In this document: in pieces, positions 2,427 to 39,278 of the stretch
How positions within the stretch are numbered: the stretch's first letter is position 1
Layout of the letters: each line of letters begins with the position of its first letter
DNA from: a virus
DNA length: 41,572 nt
Direction: 5' to 3' (one strand)
Virus record (IMG/VR): IMGVR_UViG_3300045988_021153
Span: 1-41,572 of that record
Notes under the pieces: model-generated
Databases searched by the model: none
What the model was told of the DNA's origin: nothing
What the model saw: only the letters and a program-made list of their open reading frames with translations
Made by a program: the position numbers and the translations under genes

Positions 2427-2683
2427 TGGAGTTCTCGAAGAAGTGGCTGCTCGGAAGCGGAATCGCCTGCGTGGTGCTGACGACCCTGTGCGCTTTCGGC
2501 CTGCCACTGGTGGAGATCACGCTTGCCGTTATCGCGGAGACGACGGCGAGCAGCGGCTTTTATCTTTGGAAGGCAAAGAACGAGAACCGGAGCAAGTACG
2601 CACTCAAGTACATCAAGAGCCTGCCGGAGACTTACACGGCAGAGGAAAAAGCACGGTTTCTGGAAATCGTGCTGAAAGACTGA
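2423..2683 (+). CDS. Small two-TM membrane protein, holin-like
   Basis: ATGA start/stop overlap with the upstream gene. MMEFSKKWLLGSGIACVVLTTLCAFGLPLVEITLAVIAETTASSGFYLW, then a charged tail. Confidence 0.6.
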   Translation: MMEFSKKWLLGSGIACVVLTTLCAFGLPLVEITLAVIAETTASSGFYLWKAKNENRSKYALKYIKSLPETYTAEEKARFLEIVLKD

Positions 2684-2698
2684 AAGGAGTAGAAATGT

Positions 2699-2923
2699 TT
2701 GGACGATAATAAGATAAACGAAATATGCGACAAAGCCAGATCTAAAGGTTGGCTGAATGGATTCGATTTTTCAATACTTATTCAAGAACTGACAATACCG
2801 GAAGGGGCATGGGTCATTGATACTGGAAATTTTGAAAATGTAAACGCCGAGGTGGCGCTTAGACTGATTGACAGAATCAGGCGGCATCCAATTATTTGGA
2901 AGTTATTTTTCATGGTAGCGTGA
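2699..2923 (+). CDS. Hypothetical protein on a low-GC 240-bp insert
   Basis: 74-aa ORF with a TTG start 9 nt after aaaggag. Markedly AT-rich relative to its flanks. Bracketed by the 11-bp direct repeat TGAAAGGAGTA. Confidence 0.45.
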   Translation: MDDNKINEICDKARSKGWLNGFDFSILIQELTIPEGAWVIDTGNFENVNAEVALRLIDRIRRHPIIWKLFFMVA

Positions 2924-2932
2924 AAGGAGTAC

Positions 2933-3163
2933 ATGCAAATGGATAATATCAAGAAACGGCTGGGGAATCTGCTGAGCGTGAAGTCGCTGGTGACGCTGGT
3001 GCTGACGGGCGTGTTCGCCTACATGGCGGTCGTTGGCAAAATCTCGCAGGACTTCATGACCATCTACGCGGTCATCATCGCGTTCTACTTCGGAACGCAG
3101 AGCCAGAAGCTTCAGGATGCGGTGGACGAGAAAGGAGGCGGCGCGGGAGATGCCGGTAATTAA
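2933..3163 (+). CDS. Holin
   Basis: 76 aa with two TM helices (LVTLVLTGVFAYMAVVG; IYAVIIAFYFGTQ) and a charged C-terminus. Overlaps the endolysin start. ATG at 2939 is an alternative start with better RBS spacing. Confidence 0.7.
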   Translation: MQMDNIKKRLGNLLSVKSLVTLVLTGVFAYMAVVGKISQDFMTIYAVIIAFYFGTQSQKLQDAVDEKGGGAGDAGN

Positions 3164-3845
3164 GGACGCTCTGACAAGCTGCAACCACAGCAAGGGCGGC
3201 TGCCGCCCGAAATACATCGTGGTGCATTATTTCGGGGCGCTCGGCACGGCTGCCAGCGTGGCGGAGTGGTTTAAAAATCCGCAGGCCAGAGCCAGCGCCC
3301 ACTATGCCGTGGATGAGAAGGACATCATCTACCGCTGCGTGAAGGAGTCCGACATTGCGTGGCACTGCGGCGACGGCCAGAAGCATCCGGAGTGCCGCAA
3401 CTGGAATTCCATCGGCGTGGAGGTTCGCCCGAGGAAGGTCGACAAGGCGCGTCTCGGCGCGTATGATACGGACTGGTACTTCGATGAGGCGACGCTTGAA
3501 AACGCCGTGTGGCTGATCAGGCGGCTCATGAAGCAGTACAACATCCCCGCAGAGAACGTCATCCGGCACTACGACGTGTCCGGGAAGATGTGTCCGAGGC
3601 CGTTTGTCGGGGACGATGTGAATACCCACTACAACACGTCCGGCAATGTGCAGTGGGCGAGATTTAAAGAAAGGATCGATGATGAAGTGGTAGAAAAATC
3701 GAAAATGATCGTGGACGGCAAGGAGGTCTCCGTCGAGCGCATCCTAAAGGACGGCACGAACTATGTCAAGGTGCGCGACATCGCCGCCGCGCTTGATCTG
3801 AAGGTGTCGAACAAGGGCAGCATCGCGGTGCTGGAAACGAAGTAA
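3150..3845 (+). CDS. Endolysin: N-acetylmuramoyl-L-alanine amidase (Amidase_2/PGRP type) with a C-terminal Cu-amine-oxidase-N-like wall-binding domain
   Basis: RBS aaaggagg precedes the ATG at 3150. Motifs: YIVVHY, ASAHYAVD, DIAWHCGD, NSIGVEV, RHYDVSGKMCP. C-terminus: DGKEVSVERILKDGTNYVKVRDIAAALDLKV. Confidence 0.9.
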   Translation: MPVIKDALTSCNHSKGGCRPKYIVVHYFGALGTAASVAEWFKNPQARASAHYAVDEKDIIYRCVKESDIAWHCGDGQKHPECRNWNSIGVEVRPRKVDKARLGAYDTDWYFDEATLENAVWLIRRLMKQYNIPAENVIRHYDVSGKMCPRPFVGDDVNTHYNTSGNVQWARFKERIDDEVVEKSKMIVDGKEVSVERILKDGTNYVKVRDIAAALDLKVSNKGSIAVLETK

Positions 3846-3854
3846 GGCAAGCCG

Positions 3855-4079
3855 ATGCTGCGGGGGCTGCCGAGTCTGAGCCGCAGCGATTGGGAGCATT
3901 TGATCGAGGAATGGATTTTGTCGGAGCGATACCGGCGAATCCTGAAACGGAAGATCCTTGACGATTGGAGCCACGAACGCATTGCCGAGCGCGAGGGCTT
4001 GAGCGTAAACGGCGTCAAGAAGATCATAGCGCGGTGCGTGATCGTACTGCGGGAACATGCAACAGAGCCGCCCGGATAG
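3855..4079 (+). CDS. Small sigma-70 region-4-like HTH protein
   Basis: 74 aa. LSERYRRILKRKILDDWSHERIAEREGLSVNGVKKIIARCV resembles a region-4/LuxR-type HTH. Confidence 0.55.
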   Translation: MLRGLPSLSRSDWEHLIEEWILSERYRRILKRKILDDWSHERIAEREGLSVNGVKKIIARCVIVLREHATEPPG

Positions 4080-4088
4080 GGCGGCTCT
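4064..4088 (+). terminator. Hairpin at the end of the HTH gene (no U-tract)
   Basis: agagccgccc-ggata-gggcggctct, a 10-bp stem. The stop codon lies in the loop. The hairpin is followed by tacag, so it is not a canonical intrinsic terminator. Confidence 0.35.
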
Positions 4089-4122
4089 TACAGCAGGAAC
4101 GAAAATTTAATATTCTGTTGCA

Positions 4123-4151
4123 TTTACAATGATCTTAATTTGTTCTATAAT
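4123..4151 (+). promoter_or_regulatory. Sigma-70-type promoter of the low-GC moron
   Basis: TTTACA (4123..4128), 17-nt spacer, TATAAT (4146..4151), lying 34 nt upstream of the ATG at 4185. Confidence 0.6.
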
Positions 4152-4184
4152 GGCATCAAAACTAGAGAAGGAGATCATACTACA

Positions 4185-4403
4185 ATGTGCAAGCCTATTT
4201 ATGCGAATTCACTGACTGTTACTGCGAACGAGGCAAAGAATGAATTCATTTTTACATTTAAGCATAAATATCCGGTAGTTGGAGCGAATGGCGTTGTGGA
4301 TAGCGATCAGGAAGAAACGGTGGCCGCAGTGATCGTAAATGAACAGTTGGCCGAGGCTCTTCCGGAGATGATGTCTAAAGTCCTAAGTGAGCAGGTGGAT
4401 TGA
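4185..4403 (+). CDS. Hypothetical protein, DUF3467-like pattern
   Basis: RBS gaaggag precedes the ATG at 4185. IYANSLTVTANEAKNEFIFTF...VAAVIVNEQLAEALPEMMSKVL resembles the YxN..v....sEFxxxF...A..L layout of DUF3467. This is from memory, not searched. Confidence 0.55.
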   Translation: MCKPIYANSLTVTANEAKNEFIFTFKHKYPVVGANGVVDSDQEETVAAVIVNEQLAEALPEMMSKVLSEQVD

Positions 4404-4762
4404 TGCCTAACTTTTTTGAAGTTGTAGATAGAAACGGAATAAAAGTTTACTGTACAAAAGAGCAGTGGGATTCTCATGTAGCTCTTAACCACAGCATTAT
4501 GGTTTCAAACGTCGACGCGATTGTGGAGACAATCAGGGAGCCGGAACTGGTTTTACCAAGTCACGACACGAATCCTCCACTGGATGAACGAAGGATATAC
4601 ACAAAAGAATCAAAAAGTGCTACATACTACCCGAAGCTCAAATATACGCACGTCGTTGTGTCTGTCTGCGGCGGATCGGGCGAAGTTGTAACCGCATATC
4701 CTAATAACAACAAGAAAAGCGGCTGTGGAGAAGGTGAGGCGATATATGTTGCAGAAGAATAG
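4403..4762 (+). CDS. Putative toxin-like protein (partner of the DUF2283-like gene)
   Basis: TGATG stop/start overlap. The pattern IKVYCTKEQWDSHVALNHSIMVSNVDAIVETIREPELVL...YTHVVVSV..GEVVTAYP is typical of small nuclease-fold toxin candidates encoded next to DUF2283 genes. Confidence 0.6.
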   Translation: MPNFFEVVDRNGIKVYCTKEQWDSHVALNHSIMVSNVDAIVETIREPELVLPSHDTNPPLDERRIYTKESKSATYYPKLKYTHVVVSVCGGSGEVVTAYPNNNKKSGCGEGEAIYVAEE

Positions 4763-5003
4763 CATCGGATTTGACTACGACAAGAAATTCGACGTCCTGT
4801 ACATTGCCCTCGGTGACCGCAGTAATTCTTACGGTGATGATTCCGACGGGAATGTGATCTATCTGAAAGACATTGACACGGATGAATTGACCGGGATAAC
4901 GATCATGAATTTTAAGAAGAAGTATATCGAGAATAAACTTCCTGCATTTTCAAAGAGCATCCGAAAGGTGCTGCATGACGCTGAGAAAGTAGTTATGCAG
5001 TAG
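4746..5003 (+). CDS. DUF2283-like protein (putative antitoxin)
   Basis: RBS aggtgagg precedes the ATG at 4746, which overlaps the upstream gene by 17 nt. Signature: GFDYDKKFDVLYIALGD...DGNVIYLKDIDTDELTGITIMNFKK. Confidence 0.65.
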   Translation: MLQKNSIGFDYDKKFDVLYIALGDRSNSYGDDSDGNVIYLKDIDTDELTGITIMNFKKKYIENKLPAFSKSIRKVLHDAEKVVMQ

Positions 5004-5021
5004 AGATTTTCAATCACACAG

Positions 5022-5051
5022 CAGCCGCCCTGTATGGGGTGGCTGTTTTTT
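5022..5051 (+). terminator. Intrinsic terminator of the moron
   Basis: cagccgccc-tgtatg-gggtggctg stem followed by tttttt. Confidence 0.8.
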
Positions 5052-5152
5052 GTCCGAAAAGTGGCCGGTAAGTTGGTTTTTTGTTCCGATGGCAGGGCGC
5101 ATAATGAGGATAGGAGCTGGCCAGCTTACTTTTTGATTCGGAGGATTTTTTT

Positions 5153-5683
5153 ATGGAATACGCAAGCAATGGCAAGGGCAACCTCGGTGTTACACTCGGC
5201 GCGATTGGAACCGGACTCGGCGTACTCGGCGGCGGGCTTGGAAACCTGCTTGGCGGCTGGGGCGGCATCGGTGCAAATCCGATGGCCGCTGCGGCGATGG
5301 CTGCCGGTGCGGTATGCAGCGAGAACACGCCGGTGACGCGCTACGCGCTCGAACAGCAGAAGACGATCTCGGAGAAGGACATGGAGATCGCATACTGGCG
5401 CGGGCAGGACGAGACGAATCGGAAGATCACGGAATCCTACAGCAAGCTGGAAAACCGTCTGATCGGTCTGGCGGCGGAAGTCCGCGCGAACAAGGATGAG
5501 CAGGTAGCCATCAACATGCAGCAGGCCGTGTACAACGGCACCAACACTGCGACGATTGGCTGCATCCAGAATCAGGTGGCTCAGCTGCTCGGGCTTACCA
5601 AGCTCGTCGTGCCGAACACCTCCGTGTGCCCCGGCTGGGGTGCGGCGAAAGTGACGGTTGAGCCTGCGACGGCGACCGCCTAA
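5153..5683 (+). CDS. Glycine-zipper/coiled-coil protein of unknown function
   Basis: RBS ggagg precedes the ATG at 5153. The N-terminus is GNLGVTLGAIGTGLGVLGGGLGNLLGGWGGIGANPMAAAAMAAGA, followed by a coiled-coil region. Confidence 0.7.
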   Translation: MEYASNGKGNLGVTLGAIGTGLGVLGGGLGNLLGGWGGIGANPMAAAAMAAGAVCSENTPVTRYALEQQKTISEKDMEIAYWRGQDETNRKITESYSKLENRLIGLAAEVRANKDEQVAINMQQAVYNGTNTATIGCIQNQVAQLLGLTKLVVPNTSVCPGWGAAKVTVEPATATA

Positions 5684-5733: not shown

Positions 5734-6072
5734 ATGGTAACGATCGATCAGGCCATGCGCGGCGCGATGCGGTTTGCGGACAGTGAGATCATTCCGCACC
5801 TGCCGACCGGCAAGGGAATCGGCGCGGGAATTGCGCTGGCGCTCATTATGGATGGAGGCAAGGAGCGCTTGATGCAGCTAAAGGAGCATCCGGCGGTGCA
5901 GCTCATGGGCGTAATGGACGATGGCGGCAACATTGACATCGACCGGCTGTACAATGCCGCTCGCCCGAAGATGGAAGGACAGAAGCTGCCGGTGAATGTG
6001 CCCATCCTCGGCGAGCTGCGCTTTGATGTGGGCGATCTCGATAAGCTGTACAGATACATCAAGGAGGCGTGA
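5734..6072 (+). CDS. Hypothetical protein
   Basis: RBS atggaggt precedes the ATG at 5734. 112 aa, with a hydrophobic segment GKGIGAGIALALIM. Confidence 0.6.
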   Translation: MVTIDQAMRGAMRFADSEIIPHLPTGKGIGAGIALALIMDGGKERLMQLKEHPAVQLMGVMDDGGNIDIDRLYNAARPKMEGQKLPVNVPILGELRFDVGDLDKLYRYIKEA

Positions 6073-8420: not shown

Positions 8421-9932
8421 TCAACCGATTGGCCGCGTATACCCGGCGGCTTTTGCCTCGGTCACCGTTGACACATAACGATCTGCGACAACAGAATCGT
8501 AGCACTTATCAAACGGAAGATAGAAATACATTTCACCGCCTGCACCCATGGCGCACTTAACAGCAGGATAGTTGCGCAAATCAACGGAATAGTTTTCATA
8601 ATAGTGGAGATTTGGGAAATGCGCAAACGCGGCTTTTGCCTCTGCAGAGATGGAACAGGAACAAACAAGGTGACCGTCTACGCGTATATCAGGATGCTTC
8701 GCCTGAAAGAGAGAAACGGTTCCGAATAGCTGCGTGACAACGTTGGTATGAAGCTCCTTTTCAGAAGCCCAGTATTTACACTGGACAACGCAGAGCTTTG
8801 ACAGATCGCGCTTGAATACAAGAAGGTCGCAGCCCAGATCGCCTTTCCCACATTCGGCACCGTTGTATTGGACAAAGTTACCGGCTCGCTCGTACTGAGA
8901 GCCAACATACCGCTCGAATTCAAGGCCAAGCTGCGGGCGGTTTTTCTTCTTAGCGTTCCACGCATTCAGCGCGATCTGGTACCTGTCCTTTGAATTCCAT
9001 TCGTACAGTGAGAGCAGAGACATGCATTTTTTTCGATCCTCTGCGGACGAAATCAAAGGAAGCCACATATTCTTAGGGGGAACAAGCTTTTCAGGAGGCT
9101 CGGATACGCTGACGGCAAGAGAAGTCTTGAGCTGTTCAAGAGCAGAAAGCACTTTCTCCGCACGCCGCTTTTCCTTTTCAACGGATTCCCACCGCGCGTT
9201 CAGCTCTGAAAGCGAGGACTCGACCGCCTGCGTGTCCAATGTGCTGAGGAGACCAAGGTCAACCGCGAGGTAATACATATGCTTGCAGGGCTGGCGCCGA
9301 AACTGAAAGTCAGGGCAGGTGCAATCGTACAAAGTTGTATGATAGATGCCGTGCAGGCCGGAGATATTCGCGCTTATCTCGACAGGAGAATCGTAAGAAA
9401 TAGGCTCATTCAGCGCGGAGTACAGACGCGGATCCTCAATAAAGCTATAATCCTTCGCCGCCAAGAATGCAGGGGTGGAGTGATATGGCTCCATAAATGC
9501 CAAGGCACGATCCCGCAAGGCGTGCATATTTCTCATGTATAAGTCGAAGCAAACCCGTCTCTCTTTCTCAGAAGCGTCTTTTTCACCCTGCGCGTGGCCG
9601 TCAGAATAGCTTTTGGCCTCCGCAGCGGCGATGGCTTTTTCCTGTCTGGCCATATAATCGTGCTCGGCAGATTTCAACACTTCGCGGCTGGAATTTTCGC
9701 ATTCACATCTTACACGACTACGGATGCGAGGGAGAAGCCAGAGCGATACTGGGATCGTGACGCAGAGGCCAAGAAAATAGAACAGCTCGGATATATGTTC
9801 CAGAATGCCGATGAGCGTCTGGGATCTGTCCTCCAAATGGATACTGAGTTCTTCGACAAGAGAACCCAACAACCAAGAAAGAAACGAAGCGCCGACAAAA
9901 GCAAGGATTTTCTCGGCCAATGGCAACACCAC
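8421..9932 (-). CDS. Membrane-anchored SWIM zinc-finger / Mrr-like (PD-(D/E)xK) nuclease; candidate defence protein
   Basis: 503 aa in a lower-GC stretch. Two N-terminal TM helices. SWIM finger DCTCPDFQFRRQPCKH (CxC-x9-CxH). Mrr_cat-like core LEFERYVG...GDLGCDLLVFK...VVQCKYW. C-terminal motif YFYLPFDKCYDSV..TVTEAKAAGYTRP. GTG start without a clear RBS. Confidence 0.8.
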   Translation of the reverse strand: MVLPLAEKILAFVGASFLSWLLGSLVEELSIHLEDRSQTLIGILEHISELFYFLGLCVTIPVSLWLLPRIRSRVRCECENSSREVLKSAEHDYMARQEKAIAAAEAKSYSDGHAQGEKDASEKERRVCFDLYMRNMHALRDRALAFMEPYHSTPAFLAAKDYSFIEDPRLYSALNEPISYDSPVEISANISGLHGIYHTTLYDCTCPDFQFRRQPCKHMYYLAVDLGLLSTLDTQAVESSLSELNARWESVEKEKRRAEKVLSALEQLKTSLAVSVSEPPEKLVPPKNMWLPLISSAEDRKKCMSLLSLYEWNSKDRYQIALNAWNAKKKNRPQLGLEFERYVGSQYERAGNFVQYNGAECGKGDLGCDLLVFKRDLSKLCVVQCKYWASEKELHTNVVTQLFGTVSLFQAKHPDIRVDGHLVCSCSISAEAKAAFAHFPNLHYYENYSVDLRNYPAVKCAMGAGGEMYFYLPFDKCYDSVVADRYVSTVTEAKAAGYTRPIG

Positions 9933-10189: not shown

Positions 10190-10552
10190 CGCGTACTCGT
10201 AGATGTTGTCCCAGAACTCAGGGGGCATTTCCATTGCCGCAGCGATGCAGCGCTTGCGGGTGGATTCGTCGGCCTCGGACAGAACGTCGGCAAACATCAG
10301 GGCCATGCGCTCGTTCTCGCTTCGCTGGACGTACATCGCCCCTTCTCCGGTCTCCAGCCACGCAAGCGACACGCCGAATTCCCGGCAGATGTCCGAGATT
10401 GTGCGGTCTGTAAATGGTTTTCGGCCAGAACATAGGGCAGAAATGTGAGGCTGCGTCAAATGCAGTTTGTCAGCTAACTCGGATTGCGTCAAGCGTAGAT
10501 CTTTCATCAAGTAGACGAGTCGTTCACCGATTGTGCTCAATGGGTTCACCAC
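10166..10552 (-). CDS. CI-like XRE-family repressor
   Basis: IGERLVYLMKDLRLTQSELADKLHLTQPHISALCSGRK is a classic XRE HTH. Divergent from the plus-strand early genes. A TTG at 10540 has better RBS spacing (aaaggtgg-N8) than the GTG at 10552. Confidence 0.85.
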   Translation of the reverse strand: MVNPLSTIGERLVYLMKDLRLTQSELADKLHLTQPHISALCSGRKPFTDRTISDICREFGVSLAWLETGEGAMYVQRSENERMALMFADVLSEADESTRKRCIAAAMEMPPEFWDNIYEYAKKITGSE

Positions 10553-10718
10553 CTTTCACTGAGACTGTAACACAACGCAGAATAAAAATCAAGTGAAAAT
10601 ATATCAAAGAAATAAATTTTGGCTTGACAACATTGATAAGATATGCTACGGTATAGAAAAGAAATAATTCAAGATTTCTTAGATGATGAGAAATGTCGAT
10701 TGGAAGGGGGTGGGAGGT
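10553..10718. promoter_or_regulatory. Divergent lysis/lysogeny switch region
   Basis: AT-rich 166-bp gap. Plus strand: TTGACA at 10624..10629, with only a weak -10 (TACGGT after 17 nt). Minus strand: TTGATA-N17-TATTCT (10607..10579). Confidence 0.5.
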
Positions 10719-10976
10719 ATGACGGAAAGCGAACGCTTTGGACTTCAGCTGTTGGAAGAAACGGCAAAGAACGAGACGCCGACTGCTTATGCGTTAGCCC
10801 TCCGGATGATGGAAGCATCCGAAGGGCTGGGCGCAACGGCGCGAGACTTCGATCGGGCTGTTACGTATGTGCAGCGATGGACGAAATCAACGCAACGGAT
10901 CAAGACTGCCGGTACTACGATAGCGGAGGTCCTGCGCCACAGAGACGCTGTCCTGAAGGAGCTTCAGGAACTCTAG
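10719..10976 (+). CDS. Hypothetical early protein
   Basis: RBS gggaggt precedes the ATG at 10719. 85 aa. First plus-strand gene after the switch region. Confidence 0.6.
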   Translation: MTESERFGLQLLEETAKNETPTAYALALRMMEASEGLGATARDFDRAVTYVQRWTKSTQRIKTAGTTIAEVLRHRDAVLKELQEL

Positions 10977-29723: not shown

Positions 29724-32700
29724 ATGGCAAAGAAACGGACAGGACTGGATGCGCTCCGGGAATATGAGGCGAGAAGCGGACGGCAGACGCAGAGCGAGAG
29801 CCAGCCGGCAGAAGACTCCGGCGGCACGTGGCGCAGCGGCCTTGACGCGCTGCGGCAGTTCGAGGCAAACGGCGGCGGGCAGAACGTCAAGAACGGCCCG
29901 TATAATCCGAACTACCGAACCATGACGCGGGCTATGTATGAGTCGGCGTATGAGCGATACAAGCGCGCGGCGGAAGCCCAGGAACGCTACAGCCGCGCGG
30001 CGGACGCCGTGGGCAACAATCCGGTCGGCGGGTATCTGCGGGCGATGCAGCAGCGGCAGCCGCAGGGCCGCGCCGCGAAAACAATCGACCATGATCAGCA
30101 GAGCGGGTACCGGCGGACACGTGAGGTCAAGTCGGCACAGGTGCAGCCGACGATCGAACATGACCAGCAGAGCGGGTATCTGCGGACGCTGCGCATGAAG
30201 GGCAGCGCGGAATATCTGACACAGTCTCAGGAAGATCCGGAATGGGAGACGGTGCGGCAGGATCAGGCGCGCGGCGGGAAGCGGACGCAATACGAGATGC
30301 GGCGGCAGATCGAGCAGCTTGAAAGGGCGCGGGACTATGCGCTTTCGATGCAGGCCGGAGACCCGGAGGGGCTTCCGGAGCTGCGCGGGGCATACGAGGC
30401 GGTGAACGCCGGGCGCACAAAGCCGATGACGCTGACGGAGATGGACGAGGCGCTGCGGGAAATGAAGGTCAGAAAGCAGAACGCCGCGACGCTGGCGAAC
30501 GAGGCCATGACCGCGCAGGAGCTTGAACGGAAAAAGGATGCGATCTATGCACTGGCCTTTTATCCGGAGGAATGGACGCCGGAGCAAAAGCAGGCGGCGA
30601 GAGGCATTCTCGAAACGCAGCGCGGCGGGAGCGGAATTTTCGGCGGCATGGACCGCGCACCATATGCCTTCGCGCCGTACATCGAGGCGGTGCGGAGCGG
30701 AGACATGGACCGCGCGGACGAGTGGGAGCAGATCTACAACATGCTCTACTCGCGCCTTTTTGAGAAAACAACGGCGGTCACCGAGGGCTTCGCGGAGGGA
30801 CTTGGGCTGCGGTCGGCAGAGAAGGTCATCGGAGCGGCAACGGGCGCGGAGAATCCAGCATGGGAGGCATACATGCGCTCGGTGCAGGTGGCAAAGGCGC
30901 AGAATCCGGCGCTGAGCGCGGGCGGACAGATCGCAGGCTCGCTTGCGCTGATGGGCGGCATCAGCAAGGGCGTCGGCGCGGCAAGCGGTGCGCTGCTCGG
31001 AACGAAGGCGGCACAGTTCGGGACACTCGGCAGGACGGCGCTTTCGATGGGCCAGTCGGCGCTGACGTTCGCGGCGAGAGAGGCCATTCAGGGAGCGGGC
31101 GCGGTGGCGACCGGAGAGAAGACCGGCGGCGCATACGCGCAGGACATCCTCGCAAGCGGCGCGGGCGGCGCGGCCGGTGCGCTCGTATCCGGGCTTATCT
31201 CCACGAACATGGCAGACTGGCTGAGAAGAACAGGAAACAGCAAGCTGTTCTGGGAGTTCGTGCGGCAGAGCGCGAGCGCATACGCCTTTTCCGGCACGAG
31301 CGTTGCAACAAGCGCGATGCTCGGGAGCGAGAAAAAGAGCGCGAACGAGATCGCGACGGAGCTTGGAACGGCCTTCCTGTTCTCGCTCGTCAGCGGATAC
31401 ATGAACACGATGCGCGAAACCAAGATGGCGAGCGCAGCCGTGGAGCAGAAGTACGAGACGATTTCACAGCAGCTGGACGCAATCGGAAAGCACCTTGACG
31501 GCGGCAGGAAATTCAGGACGGAGGAGGAATTCACGCAGGCCGTCGAGGATCTGCGCAGGACGGTGCAGGGCCTCAAGGCGGATGTGCAGGGAACATACTA
31601 CGCAGGACAGCAGGACTTCGTCAATCAGATGGTGGCGGCGCTCGACCGCATCGACTACAACCTGCTTTCGATGCTCCCGGGAGCGGATGCCGGAACGGCA
31701 GCAGCTTCGGCGGCCTCGACGGCGGCAGCCGGGACAGGCGGCGTGGCTGCGGCAGAAGCACAGAAGCTGATGCAGGAGGCGTCCGCGGCGCTGGCAGAGG
31801 GCACACAGGGCGTGCCGACCGCACCGGTACAGCCGGGGGATGCAGGCGGGAAGGGCGCGGCAGCGGCGGCACAGGCGCTCACAGAGGGCACGACGGCAGC
31901 AGAGCAGGCGGTGCAGGTGCCGCCGGCACAGCCGGCGATGCCTGTTCCACCGGATATGGCGAAGGAGGCCGAAGCTGCACAGCGGGAGGCGAACTTCCAG
32001 ACGCACAGCAGGTACGCAGAGGAGCGGGACGCGCGGGCGCGGGATGCGGAAGAAGTGTCGCAGGCGCGGGCGCAGGAATACACAGAGGCGATCAACGACG
32101 CGGAGGCGGACGCAGCAGATGCGGCTTTTGAGAAACTGAACAAGGCGGAGGTCAGCGGCGCATTGGACGCGCAGACTCGCTGGCAGGCAGAGGATGCCCG
32201 TGCGGAGCGGCAGTTTGAGGTGGAAAGCCGTGAGGACACGGACCGGGCGCTGAGCGAGGCTGCGCAGCGGTACGGCTATGACGAGCGGATGACGAGCGTG
32301 CTGCTTTCCGGGTACAGCGGGGCGCAGAGCACGCAGCAGTACGCCGAGGCAGTGAACGCGGCTTACGAGTACGGCAAAAGCGGAATGAGCCGCACAGCGG
32401 CGCAGAGAGCCGCACAGGGCATTGACAAGGCACTGGCAGACGAGGCGTGGAGCGCCGGAAAGGAGATTGCAAATGGCGAAAAAGCAGGAGCCGCGCGTAT
32501 TGATGACGGCGGCAAACGGAATGCAGGTATGGATTCCGGAAAGCCGGTTGGAGCAGTGGCAGGCGGCGCAGGCGGCACAGCGGCGCGATCCGCAGCGGGG
32601 CGCGCAGTCGCGGAGAGAATTGGCCTCGAAAATCGCGTCAGCGCTGCTGGGCAGCCGTACCTGAGCGGAAAGGACATCGGGCTGAGCAAGGGCTCTGCAC

Positions 32701-35700
32701 AGCGGAGCTTTCGCGAGGCGCCGCAGAGCACATGGACCGACGGCATGAAGGCCGCCGCCGAGACGCTCCGGAGCGCTGGCTTTGCGGATGTGCATTTCAC
32801 GGTGGGCTCGATCAGCGTGGAGAACCAGCGGGCGAAGGTCACGCGGTACGCAGACGGCGTGGCCGCAGGAAATTCGGTATGGGTGAATGCGACGGCGAAG
32901 AAATGGAGCGTTCAGCAGCTTGCAGACCACGAGTCGTTCCACCGGCAGGTGCAGGACGCACCGGGACTGCTGGACAGCGTGCGGGCGGTTGTGGCAGACG
33001 AGCTGGGAGATAGCGGCATTCGGGAGCTTGCACAGCGGTATGCCGAGGCATACGAGGGCTGCTATGACGGCGCGGAGCTGGAGGCGTACATCGAGGAGAT
33101 CTGCGCGGACGCCTACGCAGGCATGGACCGGTTTCCGGAGGAGAAGGCAAAGATCATACAAAAAGCCGCCCAGCGGGCGCAGGACGCGCAGCAGGCGGCA
33201 GAAGAAAACGGCGGGACCAGAGGCCCGCCGGAGAAATATAGCTATGCAGGAGAGCTCGCGCGAACGGCTGACAGCAAGTCTTTGGCCCGCGCGGAACAGA
33301 TGGAAGAAAACGGCGCTTCGGCGGAAGACATCTTCCGGGAGACCGGATGGTTCAAGGGTGCCGACGGGCAGTGGCGGTTCGAGATCGACGACAGCAAGAT
33401 GGAGTTCCGCAGAGACGGTGATGTCCGGCTGATGGAGGAAGAACCGTACCGCAGGATGCAGGAGCTTTCTGACAAGTGGGCTGCCAGCTTTGAAAAAGGC
33501 GGCGAGGAACTCACGGAGGCGGAAAACGCAGAACTGGAGGCACTTCAAGATCAATACGTTGATCGAGTATGGGAAGAAAAATATGAGCTTCAGGACTTCC
33601 TGAAGCACGACGATCTTTACAGAGCATATCCGAAGCTGCGGCATATGTCGCTGATATTCCGGCCGATGTCCATTGAGAATTATGGCTATTACTCGCCGAA
33701 GGATGGCGCGATTGTGATGAACAGCGACCTGATCGGTGCTCCGGAAAAAACGCTCATTCATGAAATTCAGCACATTATTCAGTCCATGGAGGGATTCGCG
33801 CGAGGCGCAAGCCCGAAATACTGGAATGACCGCATGGAGGAGGGCTTCTCGAAAAAGAACGCCGCAGGCGAGGAGATGCTACCGAACGAGCTTTACAGGA
33901 ACACAGCCGGTGAGATCGAGGCGCGGGACGTGGCAGAACGTCGGAATCTGAGCGCGGAGGAACGCCGAAACCGGATGCCGGATACGGGGAATGCCGATAC
34001 GGTGTTTGCAGAGGCTGGATGGCAGACTGCGATGGACTACGACCCGGAAACAGCCAGCATCAAAGAGCAGGTCGAAAATAGCCGCGAGGCGCTTAACGCG
34101 ATGGATGTGGTTGCGCGGGCGTCCGTTCCGACAAATCTTAAAACCAAGGATTCGGCTGCCGCATGGGCGGCAGAGCGGCTGAAAAGCACAGGATACCGCA
34201 TAGACCGGCAAGGGTACGGCGAAATCTATTTCAGCAAGAAGGATATGGACAAGGGGCTTCGGTACGCCGATACGGCGGAAGAAAAAGCAGCACTTGCCGT
34301 ATTACCTCAAGTGCTGAAGCGAGGAATTGAGATCGGAGACCACGCAAACCACAAAAATAGAGCGAAGCAGACGGTGACGTTTGCGGCGCCTGTGGAGCTG
34401 AATGGAACGCGTGGAAACATGGCTGTGGTCGTAAACAGAAACGGCAACCACTATTATGCTCACCGGATCGTCATGCCGGACGGAAGCGTATTTCGCTTTT
34501 CAGGGAATGCAGAAAATGCAGCGCAAGAACTGTCCCGGGGAGTGACCGTTTCCGGATCTCTTGCCGACACCACAAGCGCTGCATCTACGGACAGTATACG
34601 CAGATCAGAGCGGGAAAGTCAAGAAAAATTTTCTGCATCTGAGGAAGTGTCGGAAGCCGACGCCGGGGCGGAGGGGTCGGAGCTTCAGGTCGAGAAGCTG
34701 CCGCAGGCGAACCGGGATCAGTTTATGCGCTTTGCAACGAAGATCACGGACGATCTTGTCACGCCGCTGACTGCGCAGATGGAAACGCTGCGGAAGGAAA
34801 TGCGCCCGCGCGTGCTGGAGCTGGTGGACGAATTTCTGGAAAACGACGCGCTGAAAAGGTCCTCGGTCAATGCGATCTTTGAAGAAGCGTATGACCGCGC
34901 GCTGGAGCTAAACAGGGAGTTCTCCGAGAAGTACGCGACGCTGCAATACACCATCCGGAAAACTCCGGTCACGTTCACGGAGGAGGACACGAGACAGATC
35001 GAGCAGTACGACTATTTCGATGAAGCAGCGCTGCGGAAGCTGACGATCAAGGAAAAGGGCGGGGCGAGCATCGGTGAGCTGTATTCCGATCTTTCCGGGA
35101 TGCTGCCGGAGCTGTTCCCGTCCGGAATCAAAAATCCGGCGAAGCAGATCATGCGGATCGCGAGCGTTTACAAGCGCATCAGCAAGGCACAGGCGCTGGC
35201 ACAGCAGGTGGACAGCACGAACCCGGAATACTTCCGAGAAAATGCGTACAACGAATTTTTGGAGCAGCTGCGAAAAATCGTGCCGAAGATGCGAACAGAG
35301 CGGGAGCTTGCGCAAATCAACATCGAGGAAGAAGCGAAGATGGAAGCCTATATGGCGGAGCGCGAGAGAAGGATCGCGGAGGAGGATGCGAGACTGGCTG
35401 AGGAAGAAGCCGCAAAGGCTCCGCCGGAGGTCTTTGAAAGCCTGACGATGGACAGCATCCCGAAGAAAGCGCAGGACTATCTGCGCAGGGTGCGCGGGCA
35501 GACGGCGGCGGCGATCCAGCAGACGCTTTCGATGCCGTTTGCGGCGCGGCAGGAGGTGCTCAAGCCAGCCCTTGAGGGCATGATGAACGAATATCTTCAG
35601 ACCGGCAGGATCTCGCAGGAGACGATAGACAGGAGCTTTGAGGAATCGTACAGGCGCGGCGTGGAGATGGACACGGAATTTTACGACGAGTACAAGGACG

Positions 35701-38700
35701 TGAAGACGCGGCTGCGCGATCTGAAGGTCACGCTGTCGGAGACGGATCGGGCGGACATTGCGGACTTTGACGATTTCCGCAGGGCGGCATTCGGGAGGCT
35801 GCGCATTGCAGACGAGGGCGGCCTGCCGGTGGACACTGCCTACAACCAGATGCGGGAGATGGCGCCGGAGCTGTTCCCGGCGGGCATCACGCATCCGGCG
35901 GATCAGCTGATGCAGATGTTTGAGGTGTCCAAGCGCATCGAGAGGGTGCAGCGGTCACTGGACGAGTTCCACGGGGAAGAAGCAGAGGAATTTAAGCGCT
36001 GGGCCAAGAACGACTACGAGGCGAGCGTTGAGAACATGCTGGGCTCGCTGCGCGTGGCGCGGCGGTATGCCGAGGCGCGGATGCGGCAGAAGCAGGCGCG
36101 GGCCGTGCCAACGACGCTGGATGAGGTCAAGGCGCTGCACACAGAGCTCAAGAAGCTGCGCCGGACGTATGAGCGGGCGGCGGCCAAGAACCTGCTGACG
36201 GCGGAGGACAACAATGTCCTAAACAAACTGCTGCGCGGCGATCTCGCGTCGGAGGACGTGCAGGGCATGGAGAACGCAAAGGGCATCCTTGCCATGTACG
36301 AGGCCAAGGCAGACTATGACGAGACGGCTGCCAAGATCGCGGACTGGCGGCGCTATCAGAAGGCACAGAGGCTCGCGGTCGCCGATGCGGCGCTTAAAAA
36401 CGCGGATCAGGCGAAGGACAAAGCCGCCGGCATCCAGTACAGCCGGGAGACGATGACGCGCAATGTCCGGGACATCTTCCCGGAGGCGGACGCGGAGATC
36501 ATCAACAGGACGTACTTTGAGCCCGTCCGGACGGCCAGCGCGAACGCGAATAAGCTGAAAAACCAGCTGCGAGAGCAGGTCAAGGCGCTGGACTTGAGCC
36601 GGAAGGTCAGGACGGGAGACGCCGTGAGCGAGGCGCATGCGGTGCAGCTGCTGGGCGAGGCGCAGGACAACATCCGGTATCTCGAGCAGCACCCGCGGGC
36701 GCAGGACCGGGACGGAAAGACGCTCGATGAATGGCACGCAATCGTGCGGGATCTGTGGGCCACGAGCCCGGGTCTGGACAGGGCGAAGATCGAAAACGCC
36801 GTGGAGACGTTCCGGAAGATCTATGACGGACTCTTTGAACAGATGAATGACGTGCGCGTCCGAAACGGCTATGAGCCGATCAACTACCGGCAGGGCTATT
36901 TCCCACACTTCCAGCCGGGGACGACGGACGGCATTCTTGGGCTGATGGGAAAGGCGCTCGGCATCGACGCGGAGGTATCGGCCCTGCCGACGACCATCAG
37001 CGGCCTGACGCACACCTTTAAGCCTGGTATCACCTACTTCGGGAATGCGCTGGAGCGCATCGGATTTGACACGGCGTATGACGCGGTGGAGGGCTTTGAC
37101 AAGTATGTGGAGGGCGCGGCGAGCGTGATCTGCTACACGGACGTCATCCAGAATCTGCGGGCGCTTGCGCAGCAGGTGCGATACCGAACATCGGACGAAG
37201 GACTGCGGGAGCGGGTGGACGACGTCCGGGCCAGAGACGATCGGACCGAGAACCAGAAGGAACTGGAGATCGAGGCGATCATGAAGCAGGGGCGCTTTTC
37301 GCTTTCGAACTTCGCGATCGAGCTGGACGAATACACAAATCTGCTGGCAAACAAGAAAAGCAAATACGACCGAGCCGTGGAACACCTTACGAATCGCAAG
37401 GTCTACAAGCTGCTCAAGGCGTGGCAAAGCCGCGTGGCGGCGAACATGGTCGCGGTCAACCCGGCGTCGTGGCTGACAAACTTCGGCGTCATCACGCAGG
37501 CAGGAGCACAGCTCAAGACGACATCCGTGCTCAAGGCGATGGGACAGACGCTCAAGGGATGGACGAAAGACGACGGCTTTGTAGAACGGAGTTACTTCCT
37601 CGTAAACCGGCGCGGAAGTGATCCGCTTGTCCGCACCTGGCAGCAGAGCGCGAGCGCGGTACTGTCAAAGCCGATGGACTGGATCGACACGTTCTCGGCG
37701 GACACCATTGTCCGGGCGCGGTACATGGAGAACATCGCGCGCGGCATGAGCGAGGAGGAGGCGATGCGCGAGGCGGACGACTTCGCGGCAAACGTGATGG
37801 CAGACCGCTCGAAGGGCGCGATGCCGACGCTCTTTGAGGCCCGCAATCCGTTCGCGAAAATATTTACACAGTTCCAGCTTGAGGTGAACAATACCTTCTC
37901 GTATCTTTTCAAGGACCTTCCGCGCGATATGCGAAAGAAGGGCATGTTCGCACTGGCCTATGCGCTTTTTAAGTTCCTGATCGGTGGGTACATCTACAAC
38001 GAGGTGTACGAGCACTTCATCGGGAGACGGACAATGCTCGACCCGCTGGGGATCGTCAACGACACGGTGGGCGATCTGACGGGGTACGAGCTCAACAATC
38101 TGGCGGACGCGGCCATGGGCGGCGGACTTATCAAGGAGTCGGAGCCGGAGAGCGTGATCAGGAGCGTCGCAAATCTCGCTGTAAACGTCGGGCAGGAGCT
38201 TCCGATGATCGGAAGCCGAATCGGCGGGGGTAAGTATCCGTTTATGAATTCGTTCGGTGATATTGGAAACGCCATTGATGCGCTTGATGCGGAGAACAAG
38301 ACGGGCGGAGAGAAGGCCGCGCAGGCGGCAAGGGAGCTGATCAATCCGGCGGCATACTGGCTGCTGCCGTTCGGCGGCGGGCAGGTCAAGAAAATGTGGC
38401 AGGGCATCAGCGCCCTGAAGCGGCAGGGCAGCTATACGGCGGACGGGCGGATGCAGTATCCGATCTACACCGACCGGAAGGGCGACATGGCGAGCGCAGT
38501 CGCACGAACAATGCTGTTCGGCAAGAGCGCGACGCCGGGGGCGCAGGCGTGGGTCGAGGCGGGTTTCGGCGCACTGAGCGAGAAAGCCACGCAGACGTAT
38601 GAGGCGATGCGCGCCGGTGGCGTTGACCAGAGAGACAGCTATGAGCTTATCAAGGCCATGTCCAAGATCAAGAAGACCGACGACGCGACAGCGAAGGAAC

Positions 38701-39278
38701 TCAAGATGCAGATGCTGCTGTCCTTTGACATCGAGGACAGCGGGAAGGTGCTGTACTACTACAACATGATGGCGAGCGACAAGGAGCGGGCACAGATCGA
38801 CAAGCTGCTGGAAGCCGGCGCGGACGTGGGAGAGTATCTGAGATACATTCAGGCGGCCGCCGGGGTGACCGGCGAGAAGGACGCCGACGGCAAGACGATC
38901 TCCGGAAGCGTGAAGGACGAGACGCTCCAGCTGATCGATGGCCTCGATCTGACGCCGGAGCAGAAGACGGCGCTTGCTGCGGACAGCTACACGATGACCG
39001 GGTTTGAGCCGTGGACGGAAAACCACGACAGGCTGTACAAGGCCGTTTCGACCGGAAAGGACCTGCGCAGCACGCTCAAGGAGCTGGAGAAGGCCGGATA
39101 TGAGCCGAAGGAGATCCGCGCGGCAATCACGGAGATGTTCCGCGATGAATATCTTGCGGCAGACAAAGCCGGGAAGGCACGGCTCAAGGGATACCTGCGA
39201 AACGCGTTCATGGCGTGCGGGCTTTCCAAGAAGGAAGCGGAAAACAAGATCAAGAAATGGGAGGAGGCACAGAAGTGA
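29724..39278 (+). CDS. Giant polyvalent virion/ejection protein (3,184 aa)
   Basis: One uninterrupted ORF with RBS aaggaga. Gly/Ala hydrophobic segments. Two HExxH motifs (HESFH at 32928..32942; HEIQH at 33759..33773). A nuclease/LPD-like module (about 34200..34500). A duplicated 161-aa module. A tape-measure-like C-terminal third. Confidence 0.9.
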   Translation: MAKKRTGLDALREYEARSGRQTQSESQPAEDSGGTWRSGLDALRQFEANGGGQNVKNGPYNPNYRTMTRAMYESAYERYKRAAEAQERYSRAADAVGNNPVGGYLRAMQQRQPQGRAAKTIDHDQQSGYRRTREVKSAQVQPTIEHDQQSGYLRTLRMKGSAEYLTQSQEDPEWETVRQDQARGGKRTQYEMRRQIEQLERARDYALSMQAGDPEGLPELRGAYEAVNAGRTKPMTLTEMDEALREMKVRKQNAATLANEAMTAQELERKKDAIYALAFYPEEWTPEQKQAARGILETQRGGSGIFGGMDRAPYAFAPYIEAVRSGDMDRADEWEQIYNMLYSRLFEKTTAVTEGFAEGLGLRSAEKVIGAATGAENPAWEAYMRSVQVAKAQNPALSAGGQIAGSLALMGGISKGVGAASGALLGTKAAQFGTLGRTALSMGQSALTFAAREAIQGAGAVATGEKTGGAYAQDILASGAGGAAGALVSGLISTNMADWLRRTGNSKLFWEFVRQSASAYAFSGTSVATSAMLGSEKKSANEIATELGTAFLFSLVSGYMNTMRETKMASAAVEQKYETISQQLDAIGKHLDGGRKFRTEEEFTQAVEDLRRTVQGLKADVQGTYYAGQQDFVNQMVAALDRIDYNLLSMLPGADAGTAAASAASTAAAGTGGVAAAEAQKLMQEASAALAEGTQGVPTAPVQPGDAGGKGAAAAAQALTEGTTAAEQAVQVPPAQPAMPVPPDMAKEAEAAQREANFQTHSRYAEERDARARDAEEVSQARAQEYTEAINDAEADAADAAFEKLNKAEVSGALDAQTRWQAEDARAERQFEVESREDTDRALSEAAQRYGYDERMTSVLLSGYSGAQSTQQYAEAVNAAYEYGKSGMSRTAAQRAAQGIDKALADEAWSAGKEIANGEKAGAARIDDGGKRNAGMDSGKPVGAVAGGAGGTAARSAAGRAVAERIGLENRVSAAGQPYLSGKDIGLSKGSAQRSFREAPQSTWTDGMKAAAETLRSAGFADVHFTVGSISVENQRAKVTRYADGVAAGNSVWVNATAKKWSVQQLADHESFHRQVQDAPGLLDSVRAVVADELGDSGIRELAQRYAEAYEGCYDGAELEAYIEEICADAYAGMDRFPEEKAKIIQKAAQRAQDAQQAAEENGGTRGPPEKYSYAGELARTADSKSLARAEQMEENGASAEDIFRETGWFKGADGQWRFEIDDSKMEFRRDGDVRLMEEEPYRRMQELSDKWAASFEKGGEELTEAENAELEALQDQYVDRVWEEKYELQDFLKHDDLYRAYPKLRHMSLIFRPMSIENYGYYSPKDGAIVMNSDLIGAPEKTLIHEIQHIIQSMEGFARGASPKYWNDRMEEGFSKKNAAGEEMLPNELYRNTAGEIEARDVAERRNLSAEERRNRMPDTGNADTVFAEAGWQTAMDYDPETASIKEQVENSREALNAMDVVARASVPTNLKTKDSAAAWAAERLKSTGYRIDRQGYGEIYFSKKDMDKGLRYADTAEEKAALAVLPQVLKRGIEIGDHANHKNRAKQTVTFAAPVELNGTRGNMAVVVNRNGNHYYAHRIVMPDGSVFRFSGNAENAAQELSRGVTVSGSLADTTSAASTDSIRRSERESQEKFSASEEVSEADAGAEGSELQVEKLPQANRDQFMRFATKITDDLVTPLTAQMETLRKEMRPRVLELVDEFLENDALKRSSVNAIFEEAYDRALELNREFSEKYATLQYTIRKTPVTFTEEDTRQIEQYDYFDEAALRKLTIKEKGGASIGELYSDLSGMLPELFPSGIKNPAKQIMRIASVYKRISKAQALAQQVDSTNPEYFRENAYNEFLEQLRKIVPKMRTERELAQINIEEEAKMEAYMAERERRIAEEDARLAEEEAAKAPPEVFESLTMDSIPKKAQDYLRRVRGQTAAAIQQTLSMPFAARQEVLKPALEGMMNEYLQTGRISQETIDRSFEESYRRGVEMDTEFYDEYKDVKTRLRDLKVTLSETDRADIADFDDFRRAAFGRLRIADEGGLPVDTAYNQMREMAPELFPAGITHPADQLMQMFEVSKRIERVQRSLDEFHGEEAEEFKRWAKNDYEASVENMLGSLRVARRYAEARMRQKQARAVPTTLDEVKALHTELKKLRRTYERAAAKNLLTAEDNNVLNKLLRGDLASEDVQGMENAKGILAMYEAKADYDETAAKIADWRRYQKAQRLAVADAALKNADQAKDKAAGIQYSRETMTRNVRDIFPEADAEIINRTYFEPVRTASANANKLKNQLREQVKALDLSRKVRTGDAVSEAHAVQLLGEAQDNIRYLEQHPRAQDRDGKTLDEWHAIVRDLWATSPGLDRAKIENAVETFRKIYDGLFEQMNDVRVRNGYEPINYRQGYFPHFQPGTTDGILGLMGKALGIDAEVSALPTTISGLTHTFKPGITYFGNALERIGFDTAYDAVEGFDKYVEGAASVICYTDVIQNLRALAQQVRYRTSDEGLRERVDDVRARDDRTENQKELEIEAIMKQGRFSLSNFAIELDEYTNLLANKKSKYDRAVEHLTNRKVYKLLKAWQSRVAANMVAVNPASWLTNFGVITQAGAQLKTTSVLKAMGQTLKGWTKDDGFVERSYFLVNRRGSDPLVRTWQQSASAVLSKPMDWIDTFSADTIVRARYMENIARGMSEEEAMREADDFAANVMADRSKGAMPTLFEARNPFAKIFTQFQLEVNNTFSYLFKDLPRDMRKKGMFALAYALFKFLIGGYIYNEVYEHFIGRRTMLDPLGIVNDTVGDLTGYELNNLADAAMGGGLIKESEPESVIRSVANLAVNVGQELPMIGSRIGGGKYPFMNSFGDIGNAIDALDAENKTGGEKAAQAARELINPAAYWLLPFGGGQVKKMWQGISALKRQGSYTADGRMQYPIYTDRKGDMASAVARTMLFGKSATPGAQAWVEAGFGALSEKATQTYEAMRAGGVDQRDSYELIKAMSKIKKTDDATAKELKMQMLLSFDIEDSGKVLYYYNMMASDKERAQIDKLLEAGADVGEYLRYIQAAAGVTGEKDADGKTISGSVKDETLQLIDGLDLTPEQKTALAADSYTMTGFEPWTENHDRLYKAVSTGKDLRSTLKELEKAGYEPKEIRAAITEMFRDEYLAADKAGKARLKGYLRNAFMACGLSKKEAENKIKKWEEAQK
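34698..35180 (+). repeat. Internal protein-level repeat, copy 1 (aa 1659-1819 of the giant ORF)
   Basis: Aligns colinearly with copy 2: ...EEAYDRALELNREFSEKY...MLPELFPSGIKNPAKQIMRIASVYKRI. Confidence 0.8.
35457..35939 (+). repeat. Internal protein-level repeat, copy 2 (aa 1912-2072)
   Basis: ...EESYRRGVEMDTEFYDEY...MAPELFPAGITHPADQLMQMFEVSKRI. Same 161-aa length as copy 1, with diverged DNA. Confidence 0.8.

Follow-up and report, generated by a model that had tools for sequence, protein, structure and literature searches.

A low-GC three-gene cassette in a phage genome

The IMG/VR virus record IMGVR_UViG_3300045988_021153 (positions 1 to 41,572, referred to below as the window), which belongs to a phage of gut bacteria, carries at positions 4,090 to 5,055 a compact cassette of three small genes, which we call A, B and C. 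Its GC content is 0.428, against 0.589 for the whole 41,572-base window, the lowest value among all 966-bp stretches of the window (mean 0.589, standard deviation 0.046); an initial annotation made from the sequence had already seen here an AT-rich island in a genome of about 60% GC. GC content at third codon positions is 0.47 in gene A and 0.43 in gene B, compared with 0.72-0.81 in the neighbouring genes, namely those for the endolysin, the sigma-region-4-like protein, the 176-aa protein, the 129-aa protein and the DUF7841 protein. The elements of the cassette and its upstream edge are as follows:

4064..4088, + strand: hairpin formed by a perfect inverted repeat of 10 nt where the preceding sigma-70-region-4-like gene ends (-24.7 kcal/mol, z = -5.2)
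4123..4151, + strand: predicted sigma-70/SigA-type promoter, -35 TTTACA, 17-nt spacer, -10 TATAAT, agreeing with the consensus at 11 of 12 positions (consensus scan)
4185..4403, + strand: gene A, 72 aa, DUF3467-like
4403..4762, + strand: gene B, 119 aa, predicted BECR-fold nuclease, PBECR2/DUF4258-like
4746..5003, + strand: gene C, 85 aa, divergent DUF2283
5020..5053, + strand: predicted intrinsic terminator, 12-bp stem (5020..5047), 4-nt loop and T run (terminator scan)

The hairpin at 4064..4088 is the upstream boundary of the cassette. As a terminator it is the weaker candidate, since no long T run follows it. The downstream hairpin folds at -22 kcal/mol (z = -3.5), a stability reached by none of 200 shuffled sequences, and this bears out the strong terminator first placed at 5022..5051. 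The near-consensus promoter of the initial annotation was recovered at the same coordinates, 34 nt upstream of gene A, and is the best-scoring site in the region. The number of promoter-like sites there is not above chance (three found, 2.2 expected from shuffles), so that the case for this promoter rests on its quality, its position and its conservation: it is conserved in two of the loci that we compared, L015 and L012, and two deletion variants, L043 and L074, keep it joined to gene C.

Genes A and B overlap by 1 nt (TGATG) and genes B and C by 17 nt, and a Shine-Dalgarno sequence stands before each of the three. The translational coupling first proposed thus stands, with gene coordinates that were right to within a few bases. 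Small overlapping genes held between one promoter and one terminator, in an order kept at all loci, form a layout resembling that of type II toxin-antitoxin (TA) systems. We also considered a type III TA system or another RNA element and rejected it: the region 3800-5300 contains no tandem repeats and no Rfam family.

The cassette has what defines a phage moron, that is, its own promoter and terminator, a deviant GC content and a position between phage modules. The earlier description of a self-contained moron is strengthened by its presence in unrelated phage backbones, including on the opposite strand in L001-L006. It is best read as a horizontally acquired, foreign-looking moron.

The trio is conserved as a unit

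Local hidden Markov models of A, B and C were run on six-frame translations of every locus that we fetched. For most loci the search started from B or C itself, and many come from one phage lineage. The initial annotation had staked its idea of a TA-like system partly on the three genes occurring together elsewhere, and at the loci examined the trio does co-occur as a unit:

Loci reached through five B homologues: A-B-C in 15 of 15
Metagenome scan with B peptide patterns: trio in 18 of 20, L072 being a contig end and L074 a deletion remnant
Viral scan with a degenerate B DNA pattern: trio in 25 of 25, with A visible only at relaxed settings in L084
Four distant C homologues: trio at all loci, C being a tandem duplication in L101
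Viral scan with C peptide patterns: trio in 21 of 22, L043 being a deletion variant with C only
Genome scan with a C DNA pattern: trio in 8 of 10 loci, from Oscillospiraceae, Lawsonibacter hominis (strain NSJ-51 is a carrier), Butyricicoccus, Lachnospiraceae and other Clostridia
tblastn against plasmids: trio on an Anoxybacillus amylolyticus (DSM 15939) plasmid, named in RefSeq as DUF3467, hypothetical and DUF2283 proteins, between a LexA-like repressor and a serine recombinase

The Anoxybacillus case is the single example from the plasmid collection. A first genome scan with C patterns found no loci, and tblastn of A and B, in their window and divergent versions, gave no match in GenBank phages.

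Altogether we collected 37 distinct trio versions, in which the identity of B to the window protein falls as low as 26%, and the A-B-C order is identical at every complete locus found through B. At least five distinct flanking contexts occur in Clostridia, in addition to the Anoxybacillus plasmid: the cassette follows an endolysin and precedes an integrase or recombinase; it sits on the opposite strand, with a tail-fibre-like gene on one side and a giant ART-PolyVal gene on the other (L001-L006); it is flanked by SHOCT genes and an antirepressor; it follows a DUF1064 region; or it follows an HSDR_N gene. Across these backbones its GC content is 0.33-0.45, against 0.37-0.63 for the flanks, and it is below that of the flanks in every context. 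Cassettes in other contexts usually have a promoter-like sequence and a terminator of their own. Since the same trio recurs, as a block, in many unrelated prophages, it probably constitutes an uncharacterised module in three parts, serving as a toxin-antitoxin or phage-exclusion system.

A variant of the trio is found in L101 (1529-2542), where C is 142 aa long with a duplicated DUF2283 domain and B is shortened to 102 aa.

Gene B encodes a predicted BECR-fold nuclease

Taken singly, the window proteins gave sub-threshold matches or none in Pfam, NCBIfam and PADLOC, and scans at the level of families were therefore needed. For B, a word-index search gave 12 close relatives, and an exhaustive profile search of 1.84 billion representatives delineated a family of 299 representatives at E <= 1e-3. 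Among 118 aligned relatives, 31 match PBECR2 at E <= 0.01 (best 8e-8) and 10 match DUF4258 at the same threshold; MuF_C is matched by 10 and PBECR3 by 4 of the 118. The B proteins of the trios score 13.6-22.7 bits against PBECR2, with alignments over nearly the whole profile at E = 1e-4 to 1e-3 (19-23 bits), and the window protein itself gives no PBECR2 (PF18810) match. Because the trio proteins stay under the PBECR2 cutoff of 27.1 bits, we label the family PBECR2-like, or a sister family, and not a member. The nr entry identical to B bears the name DUF4258, and nearly identical entries are called nuclease. The exact protein also occurs on hundreds of human-gut metagenome contigs.

Residue conservation within the family is strong at the positions expected of a nuclease of this lineage: among the 118 relatives, H25 is found in 113, H30 in 105, R63 in 106 and T or S at position 97 in 117, and W22, P47, Y66 and K/H83 are conserved as well. 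In phage PBECR domains the active site combines a His in the N-terminal helix with a C-terminal Thr or Ser (PMC5512222). In the AlphaFold2 (AF2) model of B, H25 falls within the helix predicted at 19-29 and T97 within the last of the conserved strands, so that His25 (codon 4475-4477) and Thr97 (codon 4691-4693) reproduce this pattern as the putative catalytic pair.

The model has two N-terminal strands, followed by helices and then by four strands; the BECR fold as defined has a helix at the N-terminus and then a sheet of 4-5 strands. Its sole meaningful neighbour in the Protein Data Bank (PDB), as searched with Foldseek, is 7m5f_C (probability 0.98, template modelling (TM) score 0.51, E = 0.048). 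This is the BECR-fold CdiA-CT toxin of S. marcescens BWH57; its immunity protein lies over the residues proposed to be catalytic, H47, E51, H52 and R89 (PMC8616854). The spacing of H25, H30 and R63 in B is similar to that of H47, H52 and R89 in CdiA-CT. PDB sequence searches with the profiles of A, B and C returned nothing usable. No other B-like domain was detected elsewhere in the window.

These family matches, the His/Thr pair and the CdiA-CT resemblance agree with the earlier likening of B to small nuclease-fold toxins, and we regard B as a predicted metal-independent BECR-fold endoribonuclease, PBECR2/DUF4258-like. At family level, profile searches place the three proteins of the cassette in the families predicted for them at the outset, and not in unrelated ones.

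Family-level evidence for gene C as a divergent DUF2283 protein and gene A as DUF3467-like

Profile evidence at family level identifies C as a divergent DUF2283 protein, the type assigned to it by the initial annotation. DUF2283 is matched by 22 of the 26 aligned C family members (E <= 0.01, best 4.6e-6), several of the 223 relatives found by word-index search carry a precomputed PF10049 assignment or the DUF2283 name, and orthologues are named DUF2283 in nr and RefSeq. Window C also matches phrog_36767 (E = 1.3e-16). The subfamily combines an invariant NSYGD[DE] motif (NSYGDD in the window) and an acidic core with a C-terminal tail that varies and is more basic. DUF2283/YuzE is a predicted antitoxin (PMC12521503). 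We found no experimental work on DUF2283/YuzE, and literature searches for YuzE and COG5428 were uninformative. The family meant for FseA, an activator of integrative and conjugative elements, is DUF2285, not DUF2283. FseA is called a DUF2283 protein in PMC4755241, and PF10049 is cited as a 'calcineurin-like family' in PMC6733907; since both look like label mix-ups, neither is evidence for DUF2283 function.

The assignment of A is less direct. PF11950 (DUF3467) is matched by 5 of 13 homologous first genes of trios (best E = 4e-7), and DUF3467 is recorded for orthologues of A in two independent sources, L021 (a weak, precomputed PF11950 match) and the RefSeq annotation of Anoxybacillus. Membership in DUF3467 would thus be transitive, not direct, and the wording 'DUF3467-like', already used in the initial annotation, is the appropriate one. 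We found 11 close relatives of A. The protein is acidic, with an isoelectric point (pI) of 4.5 in the window and 4.4-5.3 across lineages, which makes it the most acidic of the trio. It is also the fastest-diverging, with a mean p-distance of 0.73, against 0.59 for B and 0.58 for C, and its ratio of nonsynonymous to synonymous substitution rates (dN/dS) is 0.02-0.13. Its AF2 model, with a mean predicted local distance difference test (pLDDT) score of 84.8, has a beta-beta-beta-alpha arrangement in which three long antiparallel strands are followed by a C-terminal helix. The Foldseek matches of this fold are generic only: levivirus coat proteins and LptE at a TM score of about 0.5, and an uncharacterised Myoviridae protein.

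We considered a SecB-like chaperone identity for A and rejected it: hhalign of the A family against an approximate E. coli SecB sequence gave a probability of 0.15%, and SecB is absent from the top 50 Foldseek PDB matches of A. Separately, the 90%-identity protein cluster that contains A (4185-4400) also lists 74-aa members named as sigma24 family, which correspond to the neighbouring gene, and one 182-aa member; the cluster looks chimeric.

Loss pattern, selection and recombination

Within the phage lineage of the window, two independent deletions have removed A together with the catalytic part of B. L043 lacks exactly the segment corresponding to window positions 4187-4703 (deletion at L043 position 2959) and L074 lacks 4181-4642 (at L074 position 2001), and both retain the promoter, a ribosome-binding site and an intact C. 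The loci with C and no B are L043, L074, L045 and L051; for A, the only such locus is L051. In L051, a solo DUF3467-like A lies beside a convergent pair that we take, by eye and without a Pfam scan, to be hicA/hicB (151-1119), and a solo DUF2283 C lies 5.4 kb away (5778-6032) in the same prophage, which has no B. An intact B lacking A or C was seen in none of about 100 loci (37 distinct trios), a sample biased towards one phage lineage. The loss pattern is that expected of a type II TA system: partners are seen without the putative toxin, and the putative toxin is not seen without its partners. A is best read as an obligatory third partner in the cassette.

All three genes are under purifying selection (dN/dS 0.02-0.24). 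Evolutionary distances co-vary most tightly between B and C (partial r = 0.58), followed by A and C (0.44) and by A and B (0.29), which is weak evidence as the three genes share one history. Synonymous distance (dS) to the window differs several-fold among A, B and C of one and the same phage pair in the comparisons made with L015, L028 and L034: it is 0.50, 0.11 and 0.35, respectively, for L034, and 0.80, 0.51 and 0.04 for L028. This unevenness suggests frequent recombination inside the cassette.

Proposed mechanism and rival explanations

We propose that the cassette is a prophage moron encoding an RNase toxin, B, with C as its principal neutraliser and A as a second obligatory partner, and that it serves prophage addiction, abortive infection or both. 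We consider this reading probable, if only just. The cassette would be transcribed from its own promoter, independently of the late genes of the phage. B would be a small, metal-independent BECR-fold endoribonuclease of the phage PBECR2/DUF4258 lineage, with His25 and Thr97 as putative catalytic residues, assisted by His30, Arg63 and His/Lys83. It could be restrained by direct binding of two small acidic proteins made from the same mRNA: C, the DUF2283 protein, would be the principal antitoxin or immunity protein, and A, DUF3467-like, most likely a co-inhibitor or a factor that assembles or stabilises the complex. In the lysogen such a complex would be inert. Should the balance be upset, by loss of the prophage, by shut-off of host transcription by a superinfecting phage or by proteolysis of a partner, free B might cut RNA and arrest the cell, and the outcome would be prophage addiction, abortive-infection immunity or both.

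A number of observations weigh against this proposal. No DNA-binding domain (helix-turn-helix, ribbon-helix-helix or AbrB) was recognised in A or C in Pfam and NCBIfam scans, which leaves the autoregulation of a classical type II system unsupported, and no operator-like inverted repeat was found at the cassette promoter. Family membership is thin when the window proteins are taken alone: A falls below the gathering threshold, with no Pfam match at E <= 1; B reaches DUF4258 (PF14076) at E = 0.025 with 15.3 bits for a cutoff of 25; and C matches PF10049 over profile positions 3-48 of 49 at E = 5e-4 with 20.6 bits, below the cutoff of 23. The fold of A yields no functional lead, the B model is moderate (pLDDT 70.7, one of five models confident) and its CdiA-CT match has a weak E-value. 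In most lineages, moreover, B has an acidic pI (4.8-6.1), an unusual property in an RNase toxin. The function of DUF4258 is listed as unknown in PMC11980606, and we found no paper showing toxicity of DUF4258 or PBECR proteins. Finally, the locus counts are not independent, because of the shared phage lineage and because most loci were reached through B or C.

A could have a more particular role. It may be a new kind of third TA component, for example a sensor or adaptor that frees or activates the BECR RNase on superinfection, or a dedicated chaperone other than SecB. The A-B-C trio would then be an uncatalogued prophage system of abortive infection that is widespread among Clostridia of the gut and also occurs in Bacilli. 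We put this forward tentatively, as a possibility that we do not favour.

The roles of A and C may also be the reverse of those proposed. A would then be the true antitoxin, in the classical antitoxin-then-toxin order, and C an accessory regulator, adaptor or chaperone. A lies directly upstream of B and is translationally coupled to it through TGATG, and DUF4258 modules are listed antitoxin-first (PMC11980606). A is also the most acidic of the trio (pI 4.4-5.3) and the fastest-evolving, as antitoxins often are; it is always lost along with B in deletion variants and it survives alone in L051. However, the co-variation of B with C is tighter than that with A (partial r of 0.58 versus 0.29), both independent deletions retain C under the cassette promoter, the antitoxin prediction found in databases attaches to DUF2283 and not to DUF3467, and C has the typical layout of a conserved core with a variable C-terminal tail. 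We think such an exchange of roles unlikely. Even less can be said for the idea that B is an effector of the lytic cycle, a phage RNase that cuts RNAs of the host or of the phage in order to take over the host, counter its defences or process transcripts, with A and C as inhibitors that set the timing or as subunits that confer specificity. The cassette has its own housekeeping-type promoter, its own terminator and a foreign GC content; it lies in the accessory region from lysis to lysogeny, near integrases, recombinases and repressors and sometimes on the strand opposite to its neighbours; and it hops as a unit between unrelated backbones. That phage lineages tolerate the loss of A and B and still keep C is difficult to reconcile with a core function in infection. 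The idea nevertheless draws some support from the proposal that PBECR domains, including solo phage versions, target host or phage mRNAs or CRISPR RNAs (PMC5512222), from a preprint on haloarchaeal viruses that suggests a counter-defence role for viral DUF4258 proteins, and from the giant polyvalent proteins of the phages that host the cassette (in the window, a 3184-aa protein bearing LPD23 and LPD3; in L001-L006, ART-PolyVal neighbours). We consider it distinctly improbable.

A last explanation turns the cassette into an immunity island, in which A and C primarily protect the lysogen from PBECR-type nucleases injected by competing phages, for example within polyvalent or MuF-fused proteins, B being linked and possibly secondary. 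Each of A and C is found at places that have no B, polymorphic-toxin systems commonly include orphan immunity genes (PMC3482391), and PBECR domains are delivered by virions (PMC5512222). Against this, nearly every copy of the cassette has an intact B with conserved catalytic residues and under strong purifying selection, and the solo copies of A or C are a minority that resembles decay products of the trio; we give this explanation very little credence.

Other features of the window and of related phages

Directly before the cassette, the gene at 3855-4079 (+) encodes a 74-aa protein consisting of little beyond sigma-70 region 4 (Sigma70_r4_2, E = 2.4e-8) and ends in a strong hairpin. It directly follows an Amidase_2 endolysin gene (3117-3845) and is conserved beside the cassette in L015 and L043. 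Directly downstream, 5153-5683 (+) encodes a 176-aa protein without a family match, whose Gly/Ala-rich N-terminal half could be membrane-associated, judging from this composition. This gene and the two after it, for the 129-aa and DUF7841 proteins, recur downstream of the cassette in L012 and L015. Two more low-GC patches (0.41-0.45) are present in the first 12 kb, at 2551-3000 and 10351-10800. The 503-aa open reading frame at 8421-9932 (-) gives a SWIM zinc-finger match only; its position is held by a serine recombinase or a tyrosine integrase in related phages.

The 3184-aa polyvalent protein of the window, with its LPD23 and LPD3 domains, is encoded at 29724-39278 (+), and the ART-PolyVal genes that adjoin the trio in L001-L006 encode proteins of 2600-2900 aa. 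Giant polyvalent proteins, the protein class from which PBECR domains were originally reported, therefore tend to occur in phages that bear the cassette.

Comparison with known systems

The individual genes of the cassette were already annotated as domains of unknown function; what is new is the conserved three-part architecture and its obligatory DUF3467-like partner. The initial annotation had not recognised the trio as characterised, and our searches point the same way: PADLOC-DB v2.0.0 has no match for the window trio or for three divergent trios, NCBIfam has none for the window proteins, and in the literature searched DUF3467 appears once, in an unrelated context, with no paper linking DUF3467, DUF2283 and a PBECR/DUF4258 nuclease. 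A compact and mobile operon, strictly conserved, ties together three families without assigned function, namely DUF3467, DUF2283 and the solo PBECR2/DUF4258-like nucleases, which allows a concrete, testable hypothesis on all of them jointly. If A were indeed a new kind of third component, the cassette would provide first functions for DUF3467, for DUF2283 and for PBECR2/DUF4258-like solo nucleases. As B is found on hundreds of gut contigs, the module may influence prophage stability and phage-phage competition in the abundant gut Oscillospiraceae. Should B prove to be an RNase that is specific for a sequence or a structure and is controlled by two protein inhibitors, it would furthermore be a candidate tool and a new example of BECR nuclease regulation.

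By analogy, the cassette resembles a type II TA system or a toxin-immunity pair with a BECR nuclease at its core; among characterised systems there is none of which it is a demonstrated member. The best profile similarity of B is with the PBECR2/MuF_C phage nucleases (Iyer et al. 2017, PMC5512222), with which it shares the His plus Thr/Ser pattern and a phage origin. Solo PBECR versions were noted in phages, and the main description of PBECR2 is of a domain without dedicated partners, within polyvalent or MuF proteins that are packaged in virions (PMC5512222). Here, in contrast, the nuclease-like protein is encoded by a stand-alone gene in a promoter-to-terminator moron, always flanked by the genes of two small proteins. 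The predicted type II TA modules with DUF4258 toxins (Ntox49, RelE-ParE superfamily) likewise place a small predicted BECR-fold RNase beside a small partner gene. However, the DUF4258 match of window B lies under the Pfam cutoff and its family is nearer to PBECR2; the partners reported for DUF4258 are HicB or MqsA-type antitoxins, whereas here they are DUF2283 and DUF3467 proteins, in three genes instead of two.

Among structures, the B model has a single significant neighbour, the CdiA-CT/CdiI pair of S. marcescens BWH57 (PDB 7M5F). The two have a similar H-x4-H...R arrangement of conserved residues, and in the CdiA-CT/CdiI complex a small acidic immunity protein binds over the conserved residues. 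There is no sequence homology between them, and B has neither the delivery domain nor the secretion system: it would be an intracellular, phage-encoded protein with two partners.

Tripartite TA systems include HigBA-SecB, formed by a toxin, an antitoxin and a chaperone, as well as omega-epsilon-zeta, paaR-paaA-parE and pasABC. The A-B-C cassette is like them in being a three-gene operon, with a putative toxin, a putative antitoxin and a third small protein. It differs in that A shows no relationship to SecB, that A and C have no recognisable ribbon-helix-helix or helix-turn-helix domain of the omega or PaaR type, and that all three families are different, in what would be an accessory-toxin-antitoxin order. 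For the obligatory third partner, no parallel is known in tripartite systems.

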